Source: an uncultured Porphyromonadaceae bacterium (GTDB lineage Bacteria; Bacteroidota; Bacteroidia; Bacteroidales; Barnesiellaceae). Taken from it: a DNA stretch of 64,000 nucleotides. Position 1 is the first letter of the stretch; each line of letters starts with the position of its first letter. The stretch covers positions 260,273 through 324,272 of the forward strand of contig UPYI01000001.1 of NCBI GenBank assembly GCA_900538555.1, in the 5' to 3' direction. Shown here one piece after another: positions 1-39,838 of the stretch. The position numbers were made by a program, and so were the translations under genes. A model generated the notes under the pieces. The model made no database searches, had not been told where the DNA came from, and was given only the letters and a program-made list of their open reading frames with translations.

Positions 1-36
1 CGTCGGGATATACCGGAGGGAAATAACTAACAACTA

Positions 37-786
37 TTGCGTATGAAACAAAAGTACGGTTTAATCGGTTTTCCATTGGGACATTCGTTTTCCAAAAGTT
101 TTTTCAACGAAAAATTCCAATCGGAAAATATCCATGCGGAATACATCAATTACGAAATTCCGGAGATCAAGAAATTAAAAAAGATACTCACGACCGAAAA
201 AGAGTTGTGCGGACTGAATGTTACATTGCCTTACAAAGAGGCTGTGATACCCTATCTGGATGAGATCGACGACGAAGCCCGTAAAATCGGCGCGGTGAAT
301 GTCATCAAATTCATTCGTTCGGGGAACCAGTTGAAAACCAAAGGATATAATTCGGATATTATCGGATTTTCCGATTCGATAGAACCGTTGCTGACCGAAG
401 CCCGCTCGCATGCATTGGTATTGGGAACGGGTGGTGCCGCCAAAGCTATCTGCGTCGGGTTGGAGAATCTGGGCATCGAGGTAACCAAAGTCTCGCGCGT
501 ACGGAAACCGGGATGTATCAGCTACGACGATATTACACCCGAAATCATGTTCCGCAATAAAATTATCGTAAACACCACACCTCTGGGCATGTACCCGAAC
601 ATCGAATCGTGCCCCAATATACAATACGACAAACTGACACCGGAACATCTATGTTACGACCTGATTTACAATCCGGACGAAACCTTGTTCTTGAAAAAGA
701 GCGCGCAATACGGCGCGGAAACAAAAAACGGACTGGAAATGCTGTTATTGCAAGCATTCGCCACATGGGATATTTGGCAAAGATAA
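37..786 (+). CDS. aroE: Shikimate 5-dehydrogenase
   Basis: The N-terminal YGLIGFPLGHSFS motif is typical of AroE. A Rossmann GTGGAAKA-like motif (LGTGGAAKAI) follows. Length 249 aa. The alternative start at 43 is equally plausible. Confidence 0.85.
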   Translation: MRMKQKYGLIGFPLGHSFSKSFFNEKFQSENIHAEYINYEIPEIKKLKKILTTEKELCGLNVTLPYKEAVIPYLDEIDDEARKIGAVNVIKFIRSGNQLKTKGYNSDIIGFSDSIEPLLTEARSHALVLGTGGAAKAICVGLENLGIEVTKVSRVRKPGCISYDDITPEIMFRNKIIVNTTPLGMYPNIESCPNIQYDKLTPEHLCYDLIYNPDETLFLKKSAQYGAETKNGLEMLLLQAFATWDIWQR

Positions 787-835
787 AACGAGCCGAATAC
801 AGAGCTAAGTTTATTTAGGCTATGTTAAGGCGAAG

Positions 836-925
836 TTTATCTTATATAAAGATAAAGCAAATCGAGAGCAGAGACATCAAATTTATTTGAACGGCTATGC
901 CGAGTGCTGCCTATCTTCTATAAAA
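836..925 (+). repeat. Family-1 promoter-like repeat, copy 1 (between aroE and the LysR gene)
   Basis: Roughly 88% identical by manual alignment to unit 2 of copy A: TTTATCTTATATAAAGATAAAGCAAATCGAGAGCAGAGACATCAAATTTATTTGAACGGCTATGCCGAGTGCTGCCTATCTTCTATAAAA. Confidence 0.75.
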
Positions 926-935
926 TGGAAAAACG

Positions 936-1823
936 ATGATCGATACCCGACTGAAAGTGTTTTGCAGTGTAGCCCGTAACCTGAGCTTCACCAAGGCTTC
1001 GAGAGAACTGCATATTTCCCAACCAGCTATCAGCAAACATATCCACGAGCTGGAAAACGAATACAATATCGCCCTGTTCGAGCGACTGGGAACACGAATA
1101 GAATTGACCCACGCGGGAGAGTTGTTGCTCAGCCACGCCGAGAAGATCATCGATAACTACCGGTCGCTCAATTTCGAGATGAACCTGTTGTCGGAACAAC
1201 ATGTGGGTGAATTGCGTTTGGGCGCAAGTACCACTATCGCACAATATGTATTGCCGCCTTTCCTCGCATCCTTCGCCCAAAAATTCCGACAGATAAAGGT
1301 ATCGTTGCTCAACGGGAACACCCAAGAGATCGAACATGCCATAGACGAGCACCGGATCGACCTCGGACTGGTAGAGGGGCGAAGCAACCAACCGCACCTG
1401 CATTACATTCCGTTCATGAAAGATGAACTGGTGCTGGTTGTAAACGCACAAAGCAAATTGGCGGCACTCGATGAAATCACGCTCGACGAGTTGAAAGAGA
1501 TGCCGTTGGTCATCCGGGAAAACGGATCGGGCAGCCTCGAAGTGCTGAAACACAAATTATCGGAACACAATATCCGGTTATCGGATCTGAACGTCATCAT
1601 GCAATTGGGCAGTACCGAAAGCATCAAATTATTTATAGAATCGACCGAGTGCGCCGGTATCATCTCCATACAAGCTATCGCACGCGATCTCTACGCCGGC
1701 AAATTCAAGATTATAGAAATTACCGACTTTTGTTGCGAACGCTCGTTCAGCTTCGTACAGCATATCGGGCAAAACGCCGGTATTGTCCGCGATTTCATGC
1801 GGTATGTAACACAAAACTTTTAG
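936..1823 (+). CDS. LysR-family transcriptional regulator
   Basis: The N-terminal HTH region (KVFCSVARNLSFTKASRELHISQPAISKHIHELE) is typical of LysR-type regulators, followed by the usual substrate-binding domain. Length 295 aa. It lies immediately upstream of a YeiH-family transporter, the classic yeiE-yeiH pairing. Confidence 0.85.
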   Translation: MIDTRLKVFCSVARNLSFTKASRELHISQPAISKHIHELENEYNIALFERLGTRIELTHAGELLLSHAEKIIDNYRSLNFEMNLLSEQHVGELRLGASTTIAQYVLPPFLASFAQKFRQIKVSLLNGNTQEIEHAIDEHRIDLGLVEGRSNQPHLHYIPFMKDELVLVVNAQSKLAALDEITLDELKEMPLVIRENGSGSLEVLKHKLSEHNIRLSDLNVIMQLGSTESIKLFIESTECAGIISIQAIARDLYAGKFKIIEITDFCCERSFSFVQHIGQNAGIVRDFMRYVTQNF

Positions 1824-7471: not shown

Positions 7472-7594
7472 ATCGTAAGTTCATTGATCGGCATAAAACA
7501 AAGATAAAGTTTTTTATCCGGTTCATAAACGAATGGACAAAAAACTTTATCAATATCTTTTCAGAATGGCAACCTATCCGACTGCCTGTCCGGT

Positions 7595-7921
7595 TTAGCG
7601 TTGCGGTTGTTCGCCGGCTTCGGGTACCGAAGGATATACCGAATCTTTGGCAATGCGGATGCGGGTGTTTTCTGCAATCTCCACTATAAATGTAGTATCT
7701 TTTACTTCTTTGATTTTGCCGTAGATTCCTCCTGCGGTAACGATTTTATCGCCGACCGTCAATGCTTCGCGGAATTTACGAATTTCCTTTTGTTTTTTCG
7801 ATTGCGGACGGATCATGAAGAAATAGAATACGGCTACCAATGCAACCATCATCAGAATACTCATCATACCACCGCCTTGTGTTGCAGCCTGATCTTGTAA
7901 AAGAATAGATAAGAGTGTCAT
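7595..7921 (-). CDS. yajC: Preprotein translocase subunit YajC
   Basis: A 108-aa protein with a single transmembrane segment (MMSILMMVALVAVFYFFMIRPQSKKQKE) followed by a KVGDKIVTAGGIYGKI-like motif. Confidence 0.85.
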   Translation of the reverse strand: MTLLSILLQDQAATQGGGMMSILMMVALVAVFYFFMIRPQSKKQKEIRKFREALTVGDKIVTAGGIYGKIKEVKDTTFIVEIAENTRIRIAKDSVYPSVPEAGEQPQR

Positions 7922-8076
7922 ACTTTTATTGTTTTTCTGTTAATAAATAACGTGTTTCCATTGCCAGAACCTGTCGAGGTTCACCTCTCCGAACGTTTTT
8001 GCAAGATCGGAGACTATACAAAGATAGTGCAAGCCGAATACAGAGCCGAGGTTACTCAGGCTAATGTTGAGGCGCA

Positions 8077-8258
8077 GCCTATCTTCTACAAAGATAGTGC
8101 AAGGTGAGAACAGAAGCAAATGGGAAACAACGTTTCACGATTTGAATATGCCGAACCGTAGCCTATCTTCTACAAAGATAATGCAAATCGAGAGCAGAGA
8201 CATCAAACTTGTTTGAAAGGGCTATGCCAAGATGCCGCTTATCTTCTACAAAGATAAA
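8077..8258 (+). repeat. Family-1 promoter-like repeat, copy A: 2.3 tandem units in direct orientation between nusB and yajC
   Basis: Units begin with CCTATCTTCTACAAAGATA(G/A)TGCAA. The reverse complement of 9408-9590 matches this region at about 90% identity, as judged by manual alignment. Confidence 0.8.
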
Positions 8259-8266
8259 CAAAAATA

Positions 8267-9193
8267 TTATTCTTTTGTTAGAACCCGTTGTTTTTTTAGG
8301 TCATCGACAATGGCATCGAGTACTCCATTGACGAAAACACCGCTTTTGGGAGTACTGTATGCTTTGGCTATTTCGATATACTCGTTCAACGTCACCCGTG
8401 TAGGTATGGCGGGGAAATTGTAGATTTCGCAAAGCGCCACCATCATGATCACGACATCCATGAACGCGATACGTTCGGCTTCCCAGTTTTTCGTGAAACG
8501 ATTGATATAGTCGCGGTATTCCTCGCTTTTGAGAACGGTTCCACTGAACAGTTCGCCGGCAAAGCGGGCATCTTCTTCGTCTTTGTACATCGGCAGAAGT
8601 TTCTGCGAAACACCATTCTCCGGATCGAAACGTTTGATGGTTTTCAGAACGAACGTAGAGATAATATCCAGATCGTCGTTCCAATAAAGGGATTTCGATT
8701 CCAACAATTCGATCAGATCCTCGTCGGTAGAGATAATCGTTTTGAACGTCTTGCGCCAGAACTCGCTATCCGCCTCGTACGAATTGTCGGACGACGACAT
8801 GTATTCGGCATATATATCGCTTTTCAGAATACGATCCAACAAATCGCGGATGAACTCCGGATCATTATCCCACGACACTTTGTGCTCGTCGAAATAAGAT
8901 ACATAATCGAAGCAAGAACGCAATTGCGCGATGAAACGGTTATCGACAAAACGCATATTGGGGTTCTTCTCCTCGGGCGTAGCAAAGAACTTTTGTTTAG
9001 CTGCTTCTACCCGATTGCGTTGCGCATCGGTAAGCGAGACCATCAAAGCCAACAACAAATGATATAACTCATAGGATTTTTCCAGACTGAAAATCAACTC
9101 TTTTTCCGCCGCGTGCAATGTTCTGTCCTTGGTAAGGAAATAGGAATACGCCATTTGAACGACCTTAATGCGGATTAAAATACGATTCACCAT
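8267..9193 (-). CDS. nusB: Transcription antitermination factor NusB (long Bacteroidetes form)
   Basis: A NusB-fold C-terminus (EYIEIAKAYSTPKSGVFVNGVLDAIVDDL) is present. Length 308 aa. Synteny with yajC, ybbR and coaE supports the call. Confidence 0.8.
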   Translation of the reverse strand: MVNRILIRIKVVQMAYSYFLTKDRTLHAAEKELIFSLEKSYELYHLLLALMVSLTDAQRNRVEAAKQKFFATPEEKNPNMRFVDNRFIAQLRSCFDYVSYFDEHKVSWDNDPEFIRDLLDRILKSDIYAEYMSSSDNSYEADSEFWRKTFKTIISTDEDLIELLESKSLYWNDDLDIISTFVLKTIKRFDPENGVSQKLLPMYKDEEDARFAGELFSGTVLKSEEYRDYINRFTKNWEAERIAFMDVVIMMVALCEIYNFPAIPTRVTLNEYIEIAKAYSTPKSGVFVNGVLDAIVDDLKKQRVLTKE

Positions 9194-9407
9194 ATTGAAA
9201 CGAAGTATGTAATGAACTATGTTATATGTTTAAGCATCTTTCTTGCGTTGCAAAGGTAGTGCATTTTTGTCTGTGAGCCTATACTTCCCGCCTCTTTTTT
9301 TCGGAAGGAAGCCCTTTTTTACGGGTTCTGCTTTCATTTTGCCACCGATCGGGAAATAAGTTTTTATCATTTTTTATTTGTTCTGCAAAATAAATTTAAA
9401 TATCTTT

Positions 9408-9590
9408 GTAGAAGATAGGTTGCATCTCGGCAAAGCCATTCAAACAAGTTTGATGTCTCTGCTCTCGATTTGCACTATCTTTGTAGAAGATAGGCTACGG
9501 TTCGGCATAATCAAATCGTGAAACACCGTTTTCCATTTGCTTCTGCTCTCACCTTGCACTATCTTTGTAAAAGAGAAGCGGCATCCCGGC
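9408..9590 (-). repeat. Family-1 promoter-like repeat, copy B: inverted relative to copy A, upstream of nusB and of the DUF3276 gene
   Basis: TATCTTTGTAGAAGATAGG modules occur three times. These provide TAnnTTTG boxes on the plus strand facing the gene that starts at 9700. Confidence 0.8.
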
Positions 9591-9699
9591 AAAGCCATTC
9601 AACAGATTCGATGTCTCAGCACCGGACTCTGCATTCGTTCCGTCCTACCGCTTTTTATTGGGAGGATATATTATTTCATATTGTTTGATCAAGAATATC

Positions 9700-10041
9700 A
9701 TGAAAGACGACACAAAAGAGATCGACATTATTTATTCGAAAACCATCAAGGCTGGTAAACGCATCTATTATTTAGATGTAAAGAAAGACCGGAAAGACGA
9801 GATGTTCCTGACTATTACGGAAAGCAAAAAGGTAGTGAACGGAACGGAAGAAAGTCCGGTAGTCCAATTCGAAAAGCATAAAATATTCCTATACCAAAAG
9901 GATTTCGACAAGTTGCTCGACGGACTTCATGAAGTAATCGAATACATAAAACAACGGCAACCCTATGCCGAAGAAAACGGTTATGCGGCTACGGAAGAGA
10001 AATCTTATTTCGATTCATTCCTCGACGATTTGGAAAAATAG
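9700..10041 (+). CDS. DUF3276-family (PUR-alpha-like) nucleic-acid-binding protein
   Basis: Residues IIYSKTIKAGKRIYYLDVKKDRKDEMFLTITESKKV match the conserved DUF3276 core. The ORF-track start at 9658 adds an unlikely hydrophobic extension, so the ATG at 9700 is preferred. Confidence 0.6.
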   Translation: MKDDTKEIDIIYSKTIKAGKRIYYLDVKKDRKDEMFLTITESKKVVNGTEESPVVQFEKHKIFLYQKDFDKLLDGLHEVIEYIKQRQPYAEENGYAATEEKSYFDSFLDDLEK

Positions 10042-10227
10042 ATCGAGGTTCACCCTCATCGCTTTTTGAAACAGCCCGGACAGACATCCTCTATCCGCAA
10101 AAGGTTTTATTTCCCAGCCCAATAGCCGGAGCTGTCCATACCGCCCCATTCTCCATTATGCCAACCGGACAAAGCAGGAAAGGCAACGTGCCAAAAACGA
10201 AAGGCATTCAGACATTCTAACGCACCG

Positions 10228-10272
10228 AAAAGGGGGTGCATCGAAACGAATGATTTCGATGCACCCCCTTTT
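10228..10272. terminator. Bidirectional rho-independent terminator between convergent genes
   Basis: A perfect 19-bp stem (AAAAGGGGGTGCATCGAAA pairing with TTTCGATGCACCCCCTTTT) with a 7-nt loop. It is flanked by A and T runs on both sides. It forms part of repeat family 2. Confidence 0.8.
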
Positions 10273-10291
10273 CCCGTTTCCGGTCTATACC

Positions 10292-10627
10292 TTATTCCAA
10301 CGTATCTATCTCTTTATCGGGATTCTTGTGATACACTTTTCCTTCCTGATATTCTTGTGCTGCGATCAACGTCGGTTTCGGAAGTTTCTCGTAATAACGG
10401 GAAATCTCGATTTGCTCGCGGTTTTCAAAAACTTCTTCCAAGTTATCGTTGCAAGATGCAAACTCCTGCAATTTCTTTTCCAAATCGTTTTTCATCTCAA
10501 CGGCTATCTGATTTGCACGTTTTCCGATGATACAAACGGTTTCATATACATTACCTGTGTCTTCCGACAAGGCTACCATATCACGGGTCACCGTGTTAGT
10601 GGGGGCATTTGATTTCTTGTAATCCAT
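10292..10627 (-). CDS. rpoZ: DNA-directed RNA polymerase subunit omega (Bacteroidetes type)
   Basis: A 111-aa protein containing an RpoZ/Rpb6 core (VCIIGKRANQIAVEMKNDLEKKLQEF). It lies immediately downstream of bamD, as is conserved in Bacteroidales. Confidence 0.6.
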   Translation of the reverse strand: MDYKKSNAPTNTVTRDMVALSEDTGNVYETVCIIGKRANQIAVEMKNDLEKKLQEFASCNDNLEEVFENREQIEISRYYEKLPKPTLIAAQEYQEGKVYHKNPDKEIDTLE

Positions 10628-25894: not shown

Positions 25895-25980
25895 AAATTT
25901 TTAATTTTCAATAAACGCTGCGCCCCGGCAAATCGGTTCAAGTTTCTACTTGACCGCTTCTGCACCCGGCTTGCAGTTTA
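25895..25980. repeat. Family-2 element, 3' module only
   Basis: AAACGCTGCGCCCCGGCAAATCGGTTCAAGTTTCTACTTGACCGCTTCTGCACCCGGCTTGCAG matches 39760-39835. Confidence 0.6.
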
Positions 25981-26042
25981 TCTTTATTCTTTTAAACCGG
26001 CAGAGGAGAAGACTCCCCTGCCGAAATGATTTTGCAACAAGA

Positions 26043-32610: not shown

Positions 32611-32836
32611 TCTATCTTTGCGCAGAGCGCGAACATAGGAAACGGCTCGGCATAGTTCAAATAATTTTGACTCTGCACTCGCCTTTTGCTATATTTATAG
32701 AATATAGGAGGCGGCTCGGCATAGTTCAAATAAATTTGACTCTGCGCTCGCCTTTCGCTATATTTGTAGAATATAGGAGGCGGCTCGGCATAGTTCAAAT
32801 AAATTTGACTCTGCGCTCGCCTTTCGCTATATTTGC
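32611..32836 (+). repeat. 69-bp tandem repeat array (about 3.3 copies), diverged member of repeat family 1, upstream of maeB
   Basis: The unit AGGAGGCGGCTCGGCATAGTTCAAATAAATTTGACTCTGCGCTCGCCTTTCGCTATATTTGTAGAATAT starts at 32637, 32706 and 32775, a period of 69 bp. Each unit carries a TATATTTG box on the plus strand. Confidence 0.85.
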
Positions 32837-33032: not shown

Positions 33033-35315
33033 ATGTCGAAAGTTTCAAAAGAGGATGCGCTGAGATACCACAGCGAAGGGAAAGCCGGAAAAATAGAGGT
33101 GAACCCTACCAAACCATACAGTACGCAACGGGATCTTTCGCTCGCCTATACTCCGGGCGTGGCTGAACCGTGCCTCGAAATCGAAAAAAAACCTGAAACA
33201 GCATACGAATATACCGCCAAAGGGAATCTGGTGGCTGTGATTTCCAACGGCACCGCCGTACTCGGACTGGGCGACATCGGCGCGCTTGCCGGCAAGCCGG
33301 TCATGGAAGGAAAAGGATTGCTGTTCAAAATATTCGCAGGTATCGACGTGTTCGATATCGAGGTAAACGAAAAAGATCCGGAACGTTTCATCCAAGCTGT
33401 CAAGGCTATCGCCCCAACCTTCGGCGGTATCAACCTGGAAGATATCAAGGCTCCGGAGTGTTTTGAAATAGAAACCCGGCTGAAAAACGAACTGGATATT
33501 CCCGTCATGCACGATGACCAGCACGGTACAGCCATTATCTCCGGTGCCGGATTGCTGAACGCATTGGAGATACAAGGTAAAAAAATCGAGGAGGCGCGAT
33601 TAGTGGTAAACGGCGCAGGTGCAGCGGCAATCTCCTGCACCCGACTGTACATGGGGTTGGGTATCCGTCGCGAAAATATCGTCATGGTGGATAGCAAAGG
33701 GGCAATCACTACCGACCGCACCGATCTGAACGAAGCCAAACGCCAGTTCGCCACGTCGCGTACCGACGTGCATACGCTTGCCGATGCAGTACGCGGTGCC
33801 GATATATTCCTCGGACTCTCGGTTGCCGACGTGCTGACACCCGAAATGGTGCAATCGATGAACGACCGGCCGATTGTATTTGCTTTGGCAAACCCGAATC
33901 CGGAAATCGCTTACGACAAAGCCAAAGCTTCTCGTCCGGACTTGATCTTCGCTACCGGACGTTCCGATTATCCCAACCAGATCAACAACGTATTGGGTTT
34001 CCCTTATATTTTCCGCGGCGCACTCGATGCACGTGCAACCACCATCAACGAAGAGATGAAACTCGCCGCAACGTATGCCATCGCCAAACTGACCAAAGAG
34101 CATGTGCCGGATTTCGTAAATGCGGCTTACGGTTTGGAAAGCATTACGTTCGGACCGGAATACATCATACCGAAAGCTCTCGACCCGAGACTATTGACGG
34201 CGGTTGCTCCGGCTGTCGCCAAAGCGGCAATGGAATCGGGTGTGGCACAACGCCCGATCACCGACTGGGAGGCGTACAACAACAAATTGAAAGAGTTGAT
34301 GGGCTACGACAACAAGATGTTGCGCGAACTGACCGAGATGGCGAAAAAGAATCCGAAACGGGTGGTATTCGCCGAAGCCAACCACGCCAATATGTTGCAA
34401 GCCGCCTACACGGCAAAACACGAAGGGATCTGCCAGCCGATCCTGCTGGGCAACGACGAGTTCATCTCGAAACTAGCGGCACAGATCGGTATCAGCCTCG
34501 AAGGAATGCAGATCATCAATCTCCGTCACCCCGACGAAGAGGCACGCCGCGAACGTTACGCCCGTGCCCTTGCGGCTAAACGGGAGCGCGAAGGGATCAC
34601 CTATACCGAAGCCCGCGAGAAGATGTACGACCGCAACTATTTCGGTATGATGATGGTAGAGGTAGGCGATGCCGATGCATTCATTACCGGCACCTATTCG
34701 AAATATACCGAGACGATACAAATCGCCAAAGAGGTAATCGGCATCCGCGACGGATATAAACACTTCGGAGCCATGCACATCATGAACACCAAGAAAGGTA
34801 CGTTCTTCCTCGCCGACACGCTGATCAACCGGCATCCCGATACCGATACATTGATCGACATCGCGTCCCTCGCCCGCGAATCGGTGAAATTTTTCGCAAC
34901 CGAACCGGTAATGGCAATGGTGTCGTATTCAAACTTCGGCGCAGACAAAGAAGGCAGCCCGCTCCGGGTACGGAATGCGGTGAAGGTAATGCAAGAGCGC
35001 TATCCCGATCTGGCTATCGACGGCGAGATGCAGGTAAACTTCGCTATCAACAACAAGCTGCGCGACGAAAGCTATCCGTTCAACAAACTGTACGGACGTG
35101 AAGTGAACACGCTCATCTTCCCGAACCTGAGCGCAGCCAACACGGCTTACAAAATGATGCTCGAAATGGGTGTGGCAGAGTTCGTCGGACCGATACAAAT
35201 GGGTCTGAACAAGCCGATCCACTTCACCGACATCGCCAGCTCGTCGCGCGACATCGTGAACTTGACGACTATCGCCGTTCTGGATGCCTGCGTGCAAGAG
35301 CAGAAATGCAAATAG
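33033..35315 (+). CDS. maeB: NADP-dependent malic enzyme (malic enzyme domain fused to a phosphotransacetylase-like domain)
   Basis: The malic-enzyme N-terminus YTPGVAEPC, an NAD(P)-binding GAGAAA motif, and a PTA-like C-terminal half. Length 760 aa. The ORF-track start at 32667 runs through the tandem repeat and is rejected. Confidence 0.9.
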   Translation: MSKVSKEDALRYHSEGKAGKIEVNPTKPYSTQRDLSLAYTPGVAEPCLEIEKKPETAYEYTAKGNLVAVISNGTAVLGLGDIGALAGKPVMEGKGLLFKIFAGIDVFDIEVNEKDPERFIQAVKAIAPTFGGINLEDIKAPECFEIETRLKNELDIPVMHDDQHGTAIISGAGLLNALEIQGKKIEEARLVVNGAGAAAISCTRLYMGLGIRRENIVMVDSKGAITTDRTDLNEAKRQFATSRTDVHTLADAVRGADIFLGLSVADVLTPEMVQSMNDRPIVFALANPNPEIAYDKAKASRPDLIFATGRSDYPNQINNVLGFPYIFRGALDARATTINEEMKLAATYAIAKLTKEHVPDFVNAAYGLESITFGPEYIIPKALDPRLLTAVAPAVAKAAMESGVAQRPITDWEAYNNKLKELMGYDNKMLRELTEMAKKNPKRVVFAEANHANMLQAAYTAKHEGICQPILLGNDEFISKLAAQIGISLEGMQIINLRHPDEEARRERYARALAAKREREGITYTEAREKMYDRNYFGMMMVEVGDADAFITGTYSKYTETIQIAKEVIGIRDGYKHFGAMHIMNTKKGTFFLADTLINRHPDTDTLIDIASLARESVKFFATEPVMAMVSYSNFGADKEGSPLRVRNAVKVMQERYPDLAIDGEMQVNFAINNKLRDESYPFNKLYGREVNTLIFPNLSAANTAYKMMLEMGVAEFVGPIQMGLNKPIHFTDIASSSRDIVNLTTIAVLDACVQEQKCK

Positions 35316-39644: not shown

Positions 39645-39838
39645 GTTATCATGCCCAACCTGTTGCGTTACCATCGGAAATCGGGCTAAGTCATTTATAT
39701 CAGTAAACGACCTAGCCCGATTCTTCTGCACATTGCATTTTAAACTTTTAGATTTCAACAAATGCTGCGCCTCGGCATAATCAATCCAAGTTTTCTCTTG
39801 ACCGCTTCTGCTCTCGCTTGCAACCCCCTTTCGTTTTC
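39645..39838. repeat. Family-2 mosaic intergenic element, longest copy
   Basis: Shares the 5' module CCAACCTGTTGCGTTACCATCGGAAATCGGGCTAAGTC...CAGTAAAC with 51236-51290 and 61093-61150. Shares the 3' module GCTGCGCCTCGGCATAATC...CTTGACCGCTTCTGCTCTCGCTTGCAA with 25895-25980. Confidence 0.7.

Follow-up and report, generated by a model that had tools for sequence, protein, structure and literature searches.

Inverted repeats flanking nusB in a Bacteroidales genome are outward-facing arrays of a promoter-associated hairpin repeat

Long inverted repeats around a core gene raise the question of whether the DNA between them can be inverted. Such a pair encloses nusB in a 64,000-nt stretch of the genome of an uncultured Porphyromonadaceae bacterium (contig UPYI01000001.1, positions 260,273 to 324,272), which is called the window throughout this text. 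An earlier note on this DNA had described repeats of about 90% identity over roughly 180 bp bracketing nusB and had regarded them as a substrate for recombination that would flip the gene. The description of the repeat is essentially right. A repeat search of the window returned ungapped arms at 8074–8220 and 9436–9582 (147 nt, 92% complementary), and gapped local alignment extended them to 8074–8268 and 9389–9582, with 172 identities in 195 columns (88.2%) and one 1-nt gap. The arms had originally been placed at 8077–8258 and 9408–9590; global alignment of these two segments gives 81% identity, because their ends are offset by approximately 10–20 nt. The nusB coding sequence (CDS; 8267–9193, minus strand; Pfam NusB, E = 7.6e-23) is enclosed by both arms. 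The similarity of the arms is not due to chance, since their 19-nt core, TATCTTTGTAGAAGATAGG, occurs eight times in the window at three or fewer mismatches, compared with 0.00 occurrences expected in shuffled sequences. What had been missed is that each arm is a tandem array of 70–84-nt units, and that related arrays exist elsewhere in the window. The inverted repeat is a by-product of two outward-facing arrays located at the promoters of yajC and DUF3276. The arrays look like an inverted repeat because these two promoters face apart with nusB between them.

The units of both arrays are delimited by a short box. On the yajC side, the box TATCTTTG is found at 8256, 8180, 8096 and 8026 on the minus strand and marks off units of 76, 84 and 70 nt. 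The first box of this array (8249–8256) is located 11–18 nt past the nusB stop codon, beside a second box, TATTTTTG, at 8259–8266. It is followed on the minus strand by the hairpin units Y-A (8173–8248, 76 nt, ending in the box 8173–8180), Y-B (8089–8172, 84 nt, ending in the box 8089–8096) and Y-C (8019–8088, 70 nt, ending in the box 8019–8026, which is the one nearest to yajC). These units score 74.8 bits (E = 1.4e-17), 69.4 bits and 73.8 bits, respectively, with the covariance model R1, and Y-B has a predicted minimum free energy of -20.0 kcal/mol. A unique 5′ leader of 97 nt (7922–8018, minus strand) separates the last box from the start codon of yajC (CDS 7595–7921, minus strand; Pfam YajC, E = 2.1e-30), the gene faced by this array. 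On the DUF3276 side, the boxes begin at 9401, 9476 and 9560 on the plus strand and mark off units of 75 and 84 nt. The first box, again TATCTTTG (9401–9408), is followed by the hairpin units D-A (9409–9483, 75 nt, ending in the box 9476–9483; 80.4 bits, E = 4.2e-19) and D-B (9484–9567, 84 nt, ending in the box 9560–9567 nearest to DUF3276; 74.2 bits, minimum free energy -20.7 kcal/mol). The DUF3276 5′ leader (9568–9699, plus strand), the first ~60 nt of which resemble a decayed A-type unit (TAAAAGAGAAGCGGCATCCCGGCAAAGCCATTCAAC...) by sequence comparison, leads to the DUF3276 CDS (9700–10041, plus strand; Pfam DUF3276, E = 4.6e-34), the gene faced by the right array. All boxes of these two arrays aim at the flanking gene, either yajC or DUF3276. 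The long inverted repeat corresponds to two units that the arrays have in common, A (75/76 nt) and B (84 nt).

The box has the features of a promoter element. The Bacteroidetes sigma-ABfr promoter consensus consists of the -7 element TAnnTTTG and the -33 element TTTG (as cited in PMC7366714), and TATCTTTG fits the -7 consensus. The presence of TAnnTTTG modules inside the repeat, which had been noticed before, is thus borne out, with a box at the end of each unit. The box 9401–9408 constitutes a full canonical -33/-7 promoter, with a perfect TTTG and a 20-nt spacer, and in contig L003 it directly precedes the DUF3276 leader. All units in the three intact arrays of the window end in TATCTTTG or TATATTTG, except one that ends in TATATTTA. 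In an alignment of 71 units (A1), taken from many genomes, the box letters are invariant apart from the variable position. The length of the unit is 59–88 nt across the family.

Nearly all of 79 distinct units fold into a long, imperfect, rod-like hairpin when the folded stretch begins immediately past one box and includes the whole of the following box. The outer stem is formed by the 5′ arm AAGAUAGG and the CUAUCUU of the unit's own 3′ box. This stem encloses a 3-bp stem, internal loops that are conserved and rich in pyrimidines, and an apical stem-loop that varies. Covariation was assessed in alignment A1 with RNAalifold and by pair counting. Of the cells counted, 97.3% are paired, compared with 83.5% in shuffles, none of 500 of which reached the observed value, and with 35–54% when the pairing partners were slid. 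Double changes are found in 151 cells versus 52 expected, and compensated pair states such as GC:29 / CG:21 / UA:12 and AU:47 / CG:20 occur. The inner-stem pairs also covary within the 82–85-nt size class. In units whose upstream and downstream boxes are not alike, it is the downstream one that the 5′ arm matches. The unit is thus made of a 5′ arm and the box at its own 3′ end, and for the same reason a palindrome of box plus 5′ arm was rejected as the conserved feature. The G·U pairs are counted 91 times on the sense strand versus 43 times on the antisense strand. This excess leans towards a transcript running in the direction of the gene and partly resolves the acting strand. A conserved GCGCUCG stretch of the units weakly resembles the NusB/NusE boxA; the resemblance was set aside since the units are found at unrelated genes in many genomes.

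The distribution of the family was studied by a scan of reference genomes for the degenerate core. The matches listed are a lower bound, and the window's own species is not among them. At least 98 units were identified in 100 of the listed loci with model R1; together with the 10 units of the window they form 70 arrays, 25 of which contain 2–5 units. Among these matches, units are found in Alistipes, Rikenellaceae, Barnesiella, Parabacteroides, Prevotella, Muribaculaceae, Proteiniphilum and others, and the whole-unit similarity between loci is 74–87%. The downstream gene is co-oriented with the array in 50 of 61 cases (p = 4.6e-7), while the orientation of the upstream gene is random (31 versus 24). 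The last box is located at a median of 41 nt before the start of an open reading frame (ORF) on the same strand, and the distance is below 100 nt in 49 of 64 arrays versus 13 of 60 in a mirror control (Fisher p = 1.2e-9). The genes that follow the arrays are of unrelated kinds, so the units are not the leader of a regulon. Opposite-facing pairs of arrays also occur elsewhere, in L112 (26–217, minus strand, and 550–677, plus strand) and in L115 (7716–7847, minus strand, and 25–96, plus strand). Since other genomes also show arrays in close opposition, inverted array pairs are a recurrent by-product of neighbouring promoters. Typical units, including a five-unit array, were also found in L059, L072 and L084. 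The labels of these contigs, Acidaminococcaceae and Wujia chipingensis, both belong to Bacillota, but the sequences are probably from Bacteroidales and were binned wrongly. A phage origin of the family was rejected, as true units are present in just one of 11 viral matches.

The window itself contains further members. The third array (32613–32835, plus strand) consists of a box at 32613–32620 and three 69-nt units at 32629–32697, 32698–32766 and 32767–32835 (Tandem Repeats Finder period 69, 3 copies, 94%; covariance model 55–82 bits), and it faces the malic enzyme-PTA gene at 33033–35315 (Pfam malic/PTA_PTB). The fourth array (778–920, minus strand) is partly degenerate and has two units (56.4 and 52.6 bits). 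It is situated between the 3′ end of a putative aroE (37–786, plus strand) and the start of a putative LysR-type regulator gene (936–1823, plus strand), both named from reading the ORF translations without a family search, and it points into the 3′ end of aroE. An apparently decayed unit at 25911–25981 (plus strand; 31.3 bits, E = 1e-5) has lost its 5′ arm; its 3′ box is mutated, with TTTATCTTTA at the 3′ end. A weak unit-like match at 39764–39822 (plus strand; E = 2e-3) also looks decayed. The family therefore leaves relics.

The predicted inversion was addressed in 12 independent assemblies of the species, among them eight metagenome contigs with an identical NusB and three contigs found with an orientation-neutral anchor. 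The order DUF3276 <- | nusB -> yajC -> ybbR -> coaE is the same in all 12, as seen in assemblies, in which minority molecules are not visible. The number of units varies between these strains. The alleles on the yajC side have no unit, C, A+C or A+B+C (0–3 units), and those on the DUF3276 side have no unit, A, A+B, A+A+B or A+A+A+B (0–4 units). Unit Y-C is found in every yajC-side allele but that of L004, Y-A is confined to L001, L005, L006 and the window, Y-B to L001, L006 and the window, and D-A is present in 0–3 copies. Units A and B are located on both sides, giving the long inverted repeat, only in the window/L001 and in L006; L005 shares one unit. In the remaining strains, the yajC side has just the C unit or is empty, or else the DUF3276 side has none. 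The distance between the gene and the array is constant: the start of the last box is 105 nt from the yajC ATG and the last box ~140 nt from the DUF3276 ATG in all strains. The malic-enzyme array has 2–3 units, and a difference of one unit separates the TetR-maeB spacer of one strain (592 nt) from that of three others (522 nt). Five short-read contigs, L142–L146, stop within or close to the 69-nt array, 232–300 nt upstream of the TetR gene, and arrays seem to break short-read assemblies. The A-type units keep side-specific signatures across strains. The B-unit variants (CATATTC/CATAATC; apical GTTGTTTCCC / GTCGTTTTCC / ACCGTTTTCC) are spread over both arms in different strains (8089–8172 versus 9484–9567, L001–L008), a pattern suggestive of gene conversion happening now and then between the B units of the two arms. 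No transposase, recombinase or reverse transcriptase was found within ±3 kb of nusB in any strain contig, in agreement with the earlier note as far as a recombinase is concerned.

Comparison with related genomes indicates the ancestral state of the locus. The nearest named relatives by NusB identity are Coprobacter sp. (72%), Ca. Barnesiella excrementigallinarum (69%) and C. fastidiosus (60%). The gene order is kept at the nusB locus of the Coprobacter and Barnesiella relatives, with the block in the same orientation, and no units were found there. In Coprobacter sp. and Ca. Barnesiella excrementigallinarum, a single TATATTTG box is present 11–12 nt past the nusB stop codon, in the same region as the lone yajC-proximal box of the unit-free allele L004. 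The box 8249–8256 of the window matches this single ancestral yajC promoter box (L004; relatives L132/L135). As the relatives keep the gene order and a single box without units, in this lineage the arrays were built onto a plain promoter inherited from the ancestor. The alternative that the earlier note had offered to inversion, a fossil of repeat insertion, comes close to what this evidence shows. In one C. fastidiosus contig, L137, genes for DDE transposases flank the DUF3276-nusB pair, and yajC is no longer adjacent; insertion sequence elements can break synteny here, which is different from an inversion of nusB.

We propose that the arrays are separate head-to-tail stacks of one dispersed repeat family, which probably act as promoter modules and give transcripts a 5′ stem-loop. 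The 3′ arm of the unit would be a sigma-ABfr promoter and the 5′ arm an imperfect complement of that promoter. Units would stack directly behind a pre-existing -7 box. Since each unit ends in a new box, n units give n+1 tandem promoter boxes, the last of which holds the native place before the gene. Every box, including the upstream ones, may be able to fire. Transcripts from the upstream boxes would start at the foot of a hairpin and carry one or more 5′-terminal stem-loops; starts are expected 4–8 nt after each box, with RNAs beginning (A)GAAGAUAGG. In E. coli and B. subtilis, 5′-terminal stem-loops shield mRNA from 5′-end-dependent decay. The number of units may thus tune promoter strength or mRNA stability, and changes in it would probably arise where the identical box regions of ~25 nt recombine unequally or allow slippage. 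A more tentative extension, which we consider possible but rather unlikely, is that the units are a class of self-propagating promoter cassettes, unrecognised until now, that land exactly behind a -7 box, rebuild the promoter with their own 3′ arm and expand into arrays, which the host may co-opt as heritable, strain-variable rheostats for the expression of housekeeping genes. Because its own 3′ arm rebuilds the promoter, such a cassette could colonise promoters without silencing genes.

Several observations weigh against the promoter-module proposal. Only 18 of 71 units have a strict TTTG placed 20 nt before the -7 box; with a relaxed -33 element (YTTG/TTTS at 17–23 nt) the count is 47 of 71. 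The folding energy is equal on the sense and antisense strands, and a DNA-level structure or an RNA from the other strand may be compatible with this. In approximately 18% of the arrays, among them the array 778–920 of the window, the next gene does not share the array's orientation. The genes adjacent to the arrays of the window have rather long leaders of 97–197 nt, and the last box may not be their sole promoter. Most loci were gathered with a pattern that included the upstream box, which biases the statement that units always follow a box. The copy numbers were all read off metagenome assemblies made from short reads; collapse artefacts are unlikely, as the alleles track linked single-nucleotide polymorphisms and the units differ in sequence. 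Finally, the firing of the promoters, the positions of the transcription start sites and the effect on mRNA stability are all features that we infer from the sequence.

The main rival to this proposal regards the units as a selfish, non-autonomous mobile hairpin of the REP/RAYT, IS200/IS605 or MITE (a miniature transposable element with inverted repeats) kind that inserts strand-specifically just 3′ of a TAnnTTTG box. Since the unit carries the same box at its 3′ end, the promoter would be regenerated and the insertion tolerated, and the association with promoters would reflect target choice and not function. The two explanations overlap and differ mainly on origin and selection. The dispersal of the family before unrelated genes in many genera, the unit subtypes common to different families at 74–87% identity and the existence of decayed relics are all consistent with mobility. 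The same is true of the filled and empty alleles flanked by the same box, which resemble a target duplication, and of the absence of the nusB-locus arrays from sister genera. The G·U ratio of only 2:1 and the symmetric folding energies are compatible with a single-stranded DNA hairpin, and a GTAG is located 5′ of the foot of the unit's stem, which we take to be comparable to that of E. coli REPs. With regard to MITEs, the hairpin arms act as full-length inverted repeats, and the arrays are bounded by the same TAnnTTTG(TA) box, which is equally explained by recombination between pre-existing boxes. The absence of a transposase, recombinase or reverse transcriptase within ±3 kb of nusB in any strain argues against mobility. 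All variation among the strains consists of whole units gained or lost within arrays already in place, and recombination between boxes explains it without transposition. Furthermore, the arrays are strictly head-to-tail, unlike BIMEs, and viral sequences rarely carry true units. On this evidence we regard the mobile-hairpin explanation as rather unlikely.

It is improbable that the units are genes for small RNAs (sRNAs), each giving a hairpin RNA of ~65–85 nt from the preceding box that acts in trans. The -7 box before each unit and the covarying structure would fit such genes, and multicopy sRNA families exist in Bacteroides (PMC11697453). The units are not followed by a terminator, with only one apical stem being terminator-like, and a conserved single-stranded seed is absent from them. 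Their close and narrow spacing to the start codon downstream points to a role in cis, and the flanking genes are unrelated. The FopS/GibS sRNAs were considered and rejected, as these have single-stranded seeds and are confined to Bacteroidaceae.

The RecA-dependent inversion between the arms that would flip nusB, from which the interest in this locus arose, has very little probability. In its favour, the window, L001 and L006 carry ~160–195 bp of inverted homology at 88–92%, and the B-unit variants common to both arms in different strains suggest some recombinational exchange. The single orientation in the assemblies of the species and in related genera does not support it. Most strains are without matching units on both sides, and the side-specific signatures of the A-type units indicate that the arms are not being homogenised. 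No invertase is encoded nearby (±3 kb). An inversion had also been expected to swap the modules that face each gene; the outer parts of the arrays would not move and every box would keep its outward direction, so that no promoter box would be re-aimed. Apart from the homology and the B-unit variants found in both arms, nothing speaks positively for the inversion model, and rare recombination between the arms is a weak possibility.

The least probable explanation is that the units serve as a REP-like 3′ stabiliser, terminator or insulator of the upstream gene, which would fit the yajC-side array that begins 11 nt past the nusB stop codon, so that nusB read-through RNA would end in hairpins, or as an array of double-stranded DNA operators for a repressor, which would fit the palindromic core; against it stand the upstream gene being divergent in 31 of 55 cases, often leaving no upstream transcript, the stems that are AT-rich at the base and have no U-tract, and the compensatory changes along a 60–90-nt rod, which reflect base pairing and not a protein site in duplex DNA. 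Intrinsic terminators as such were rejected, as only one apical stem was flagged.

The hairpin repeat family is apparently undescribed. No Rfam 15 match was obtained in the whole window at gathering thresholds, and over 7900–9720 the permissive mode returned only noise with E > 2. No description of the element or of its core sequence was found in the open-access literature. An ordinary sigma-ABfr promoter shares with the units the -7 box and the placement directed towards a gene, but it is not embedded in a covarying 60–90-nt hairpin and is not repeated head-to-tail with strain-variable copy number. The Correia elements of Neisseria and other promoter-bearing MITEs are small, dispersed intergenic repeats whose transcripts form hairpins and which can provide adjacent genes with promoter elements. 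The units resemble them as small, hairpin-forming repeats that carry a promoter box. Correia elements differ in their terminal inverted repeats with a TA duplication, are single insertions, lack strict co-orientation with genes and do not form head-to-tail arrays. The pneumococcal BOX and the E. coli REP/BIME elements are structured intergenic repeats with a variable number of modules, which are reported to affect the expression or stability of the mRNAs next to them. BOX is built from different modules (A, B and C), the orientation of BIMEs alternates and most of them are located at the 3′ ends of genes, and neither uses a promoter box as a stem arm. The units do not match the REP/BIME pattern of ~20–40-nt alternating palindromes at 3′ ends, being 59–88 nt long, strictly head-to-tail and located upstream of genes. 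A RAYT (Y1 transposase) gene such as accompanies REPs is absent within ±3 kb of nusB.

Two tandem repeats of Bacteroidota were also compared. The BrickBuilt MITE of Porphyromonas gingivalis is intergenic, contains an internal tandem array and has measurable bidirectional promoter activity (PMC4596501). Its 23-nt bricks are placed between a leader and a tail with IS5-like terminal inverted repeats (GAGACC...), and its 19 copies are confined to Porphyromonas (PMC4596501). Identity with BrickBuilt was rejected, since the units are 59–88-nt hairpins without 23-nt bricks or IS5-like terminal inverted repeats. The ncRNA arrays of UG27 reverse transcriptases are variable-copy tandem hairpin units in Bacteroidota that are gained and lost between related loci (bioRxiv 10.64898/2026.09.22.753630). 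They are built of ~135–167-nt units with a pseudoknot, beside the reverse transcriptase and two accessory genes in prophages (bioRxiv 10.64898/2026.09.22.753630). Identity with these was also rejected: the units described here are half the size, are simple hairpins and are located at housekeeping promoters with no reverse transcriptase nearby, the neighbours at the nusB locus being yajC, ybbR, coaE, DUF3276, rpoZ and bamD. A CRISPR array was rejected because the stretches that separate the cores share homology with one another and form base pairs with the cores. The locus also differs from an invertible DNA switch, as the arms are missing or unmatched in most strains and no recombinase domain is present within ±3 kb.

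If the units work as we propose, gut Bacteroidales change the expression of core genes, among them yajC, DUF3276 and the malic-enzyme gene, by adding or removing whole units, and this would create strain-level regulatory variation that is invisible to comparisons of gene content. The strong covariation, the occurrence in several families of the order and the lack of an Rfam model make the repeat a candidate for a new family of structured elements. The units are a possible part for the engineering of expression in Bacteroides. The arrays can also pass for the borders of an inversion or of a mobile element, as they did at nusB.

Other features of the locus lie outside the arrays. A candidate -7 box of nusB itself, TACCTTTG, is located at 9251–9258 (minus strand), 57 nt before the ATG, in unique sequence between the arms. 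It is overlapped by an ORF for a basic 46-aa peptide (MIKTYFPIGGKMKAEPVKKGF...; 9230–9370, minus strand), which is present upstream of nusB in seven of eight strain contigs; it has no Pfam match and may be spurious or an upstream ORF. The yajC-ybbR spacer contains a 17-nt inverted repeat (7503–7551) that is 94% complementary and may act as terminator or attenuator within the yajC-ybbR-coaE cluster. A perfect 20-bp inverted repeat with a 7-nt loop (GAAAAGGGGGTGCATCGAAA / TTTCGATGCACCCCCTTTTC) is present at 10227–10273, between the convergent genes DUF3276 and rpoZ (10292–10627, minus strand), and is probably a bidirectional terminator.

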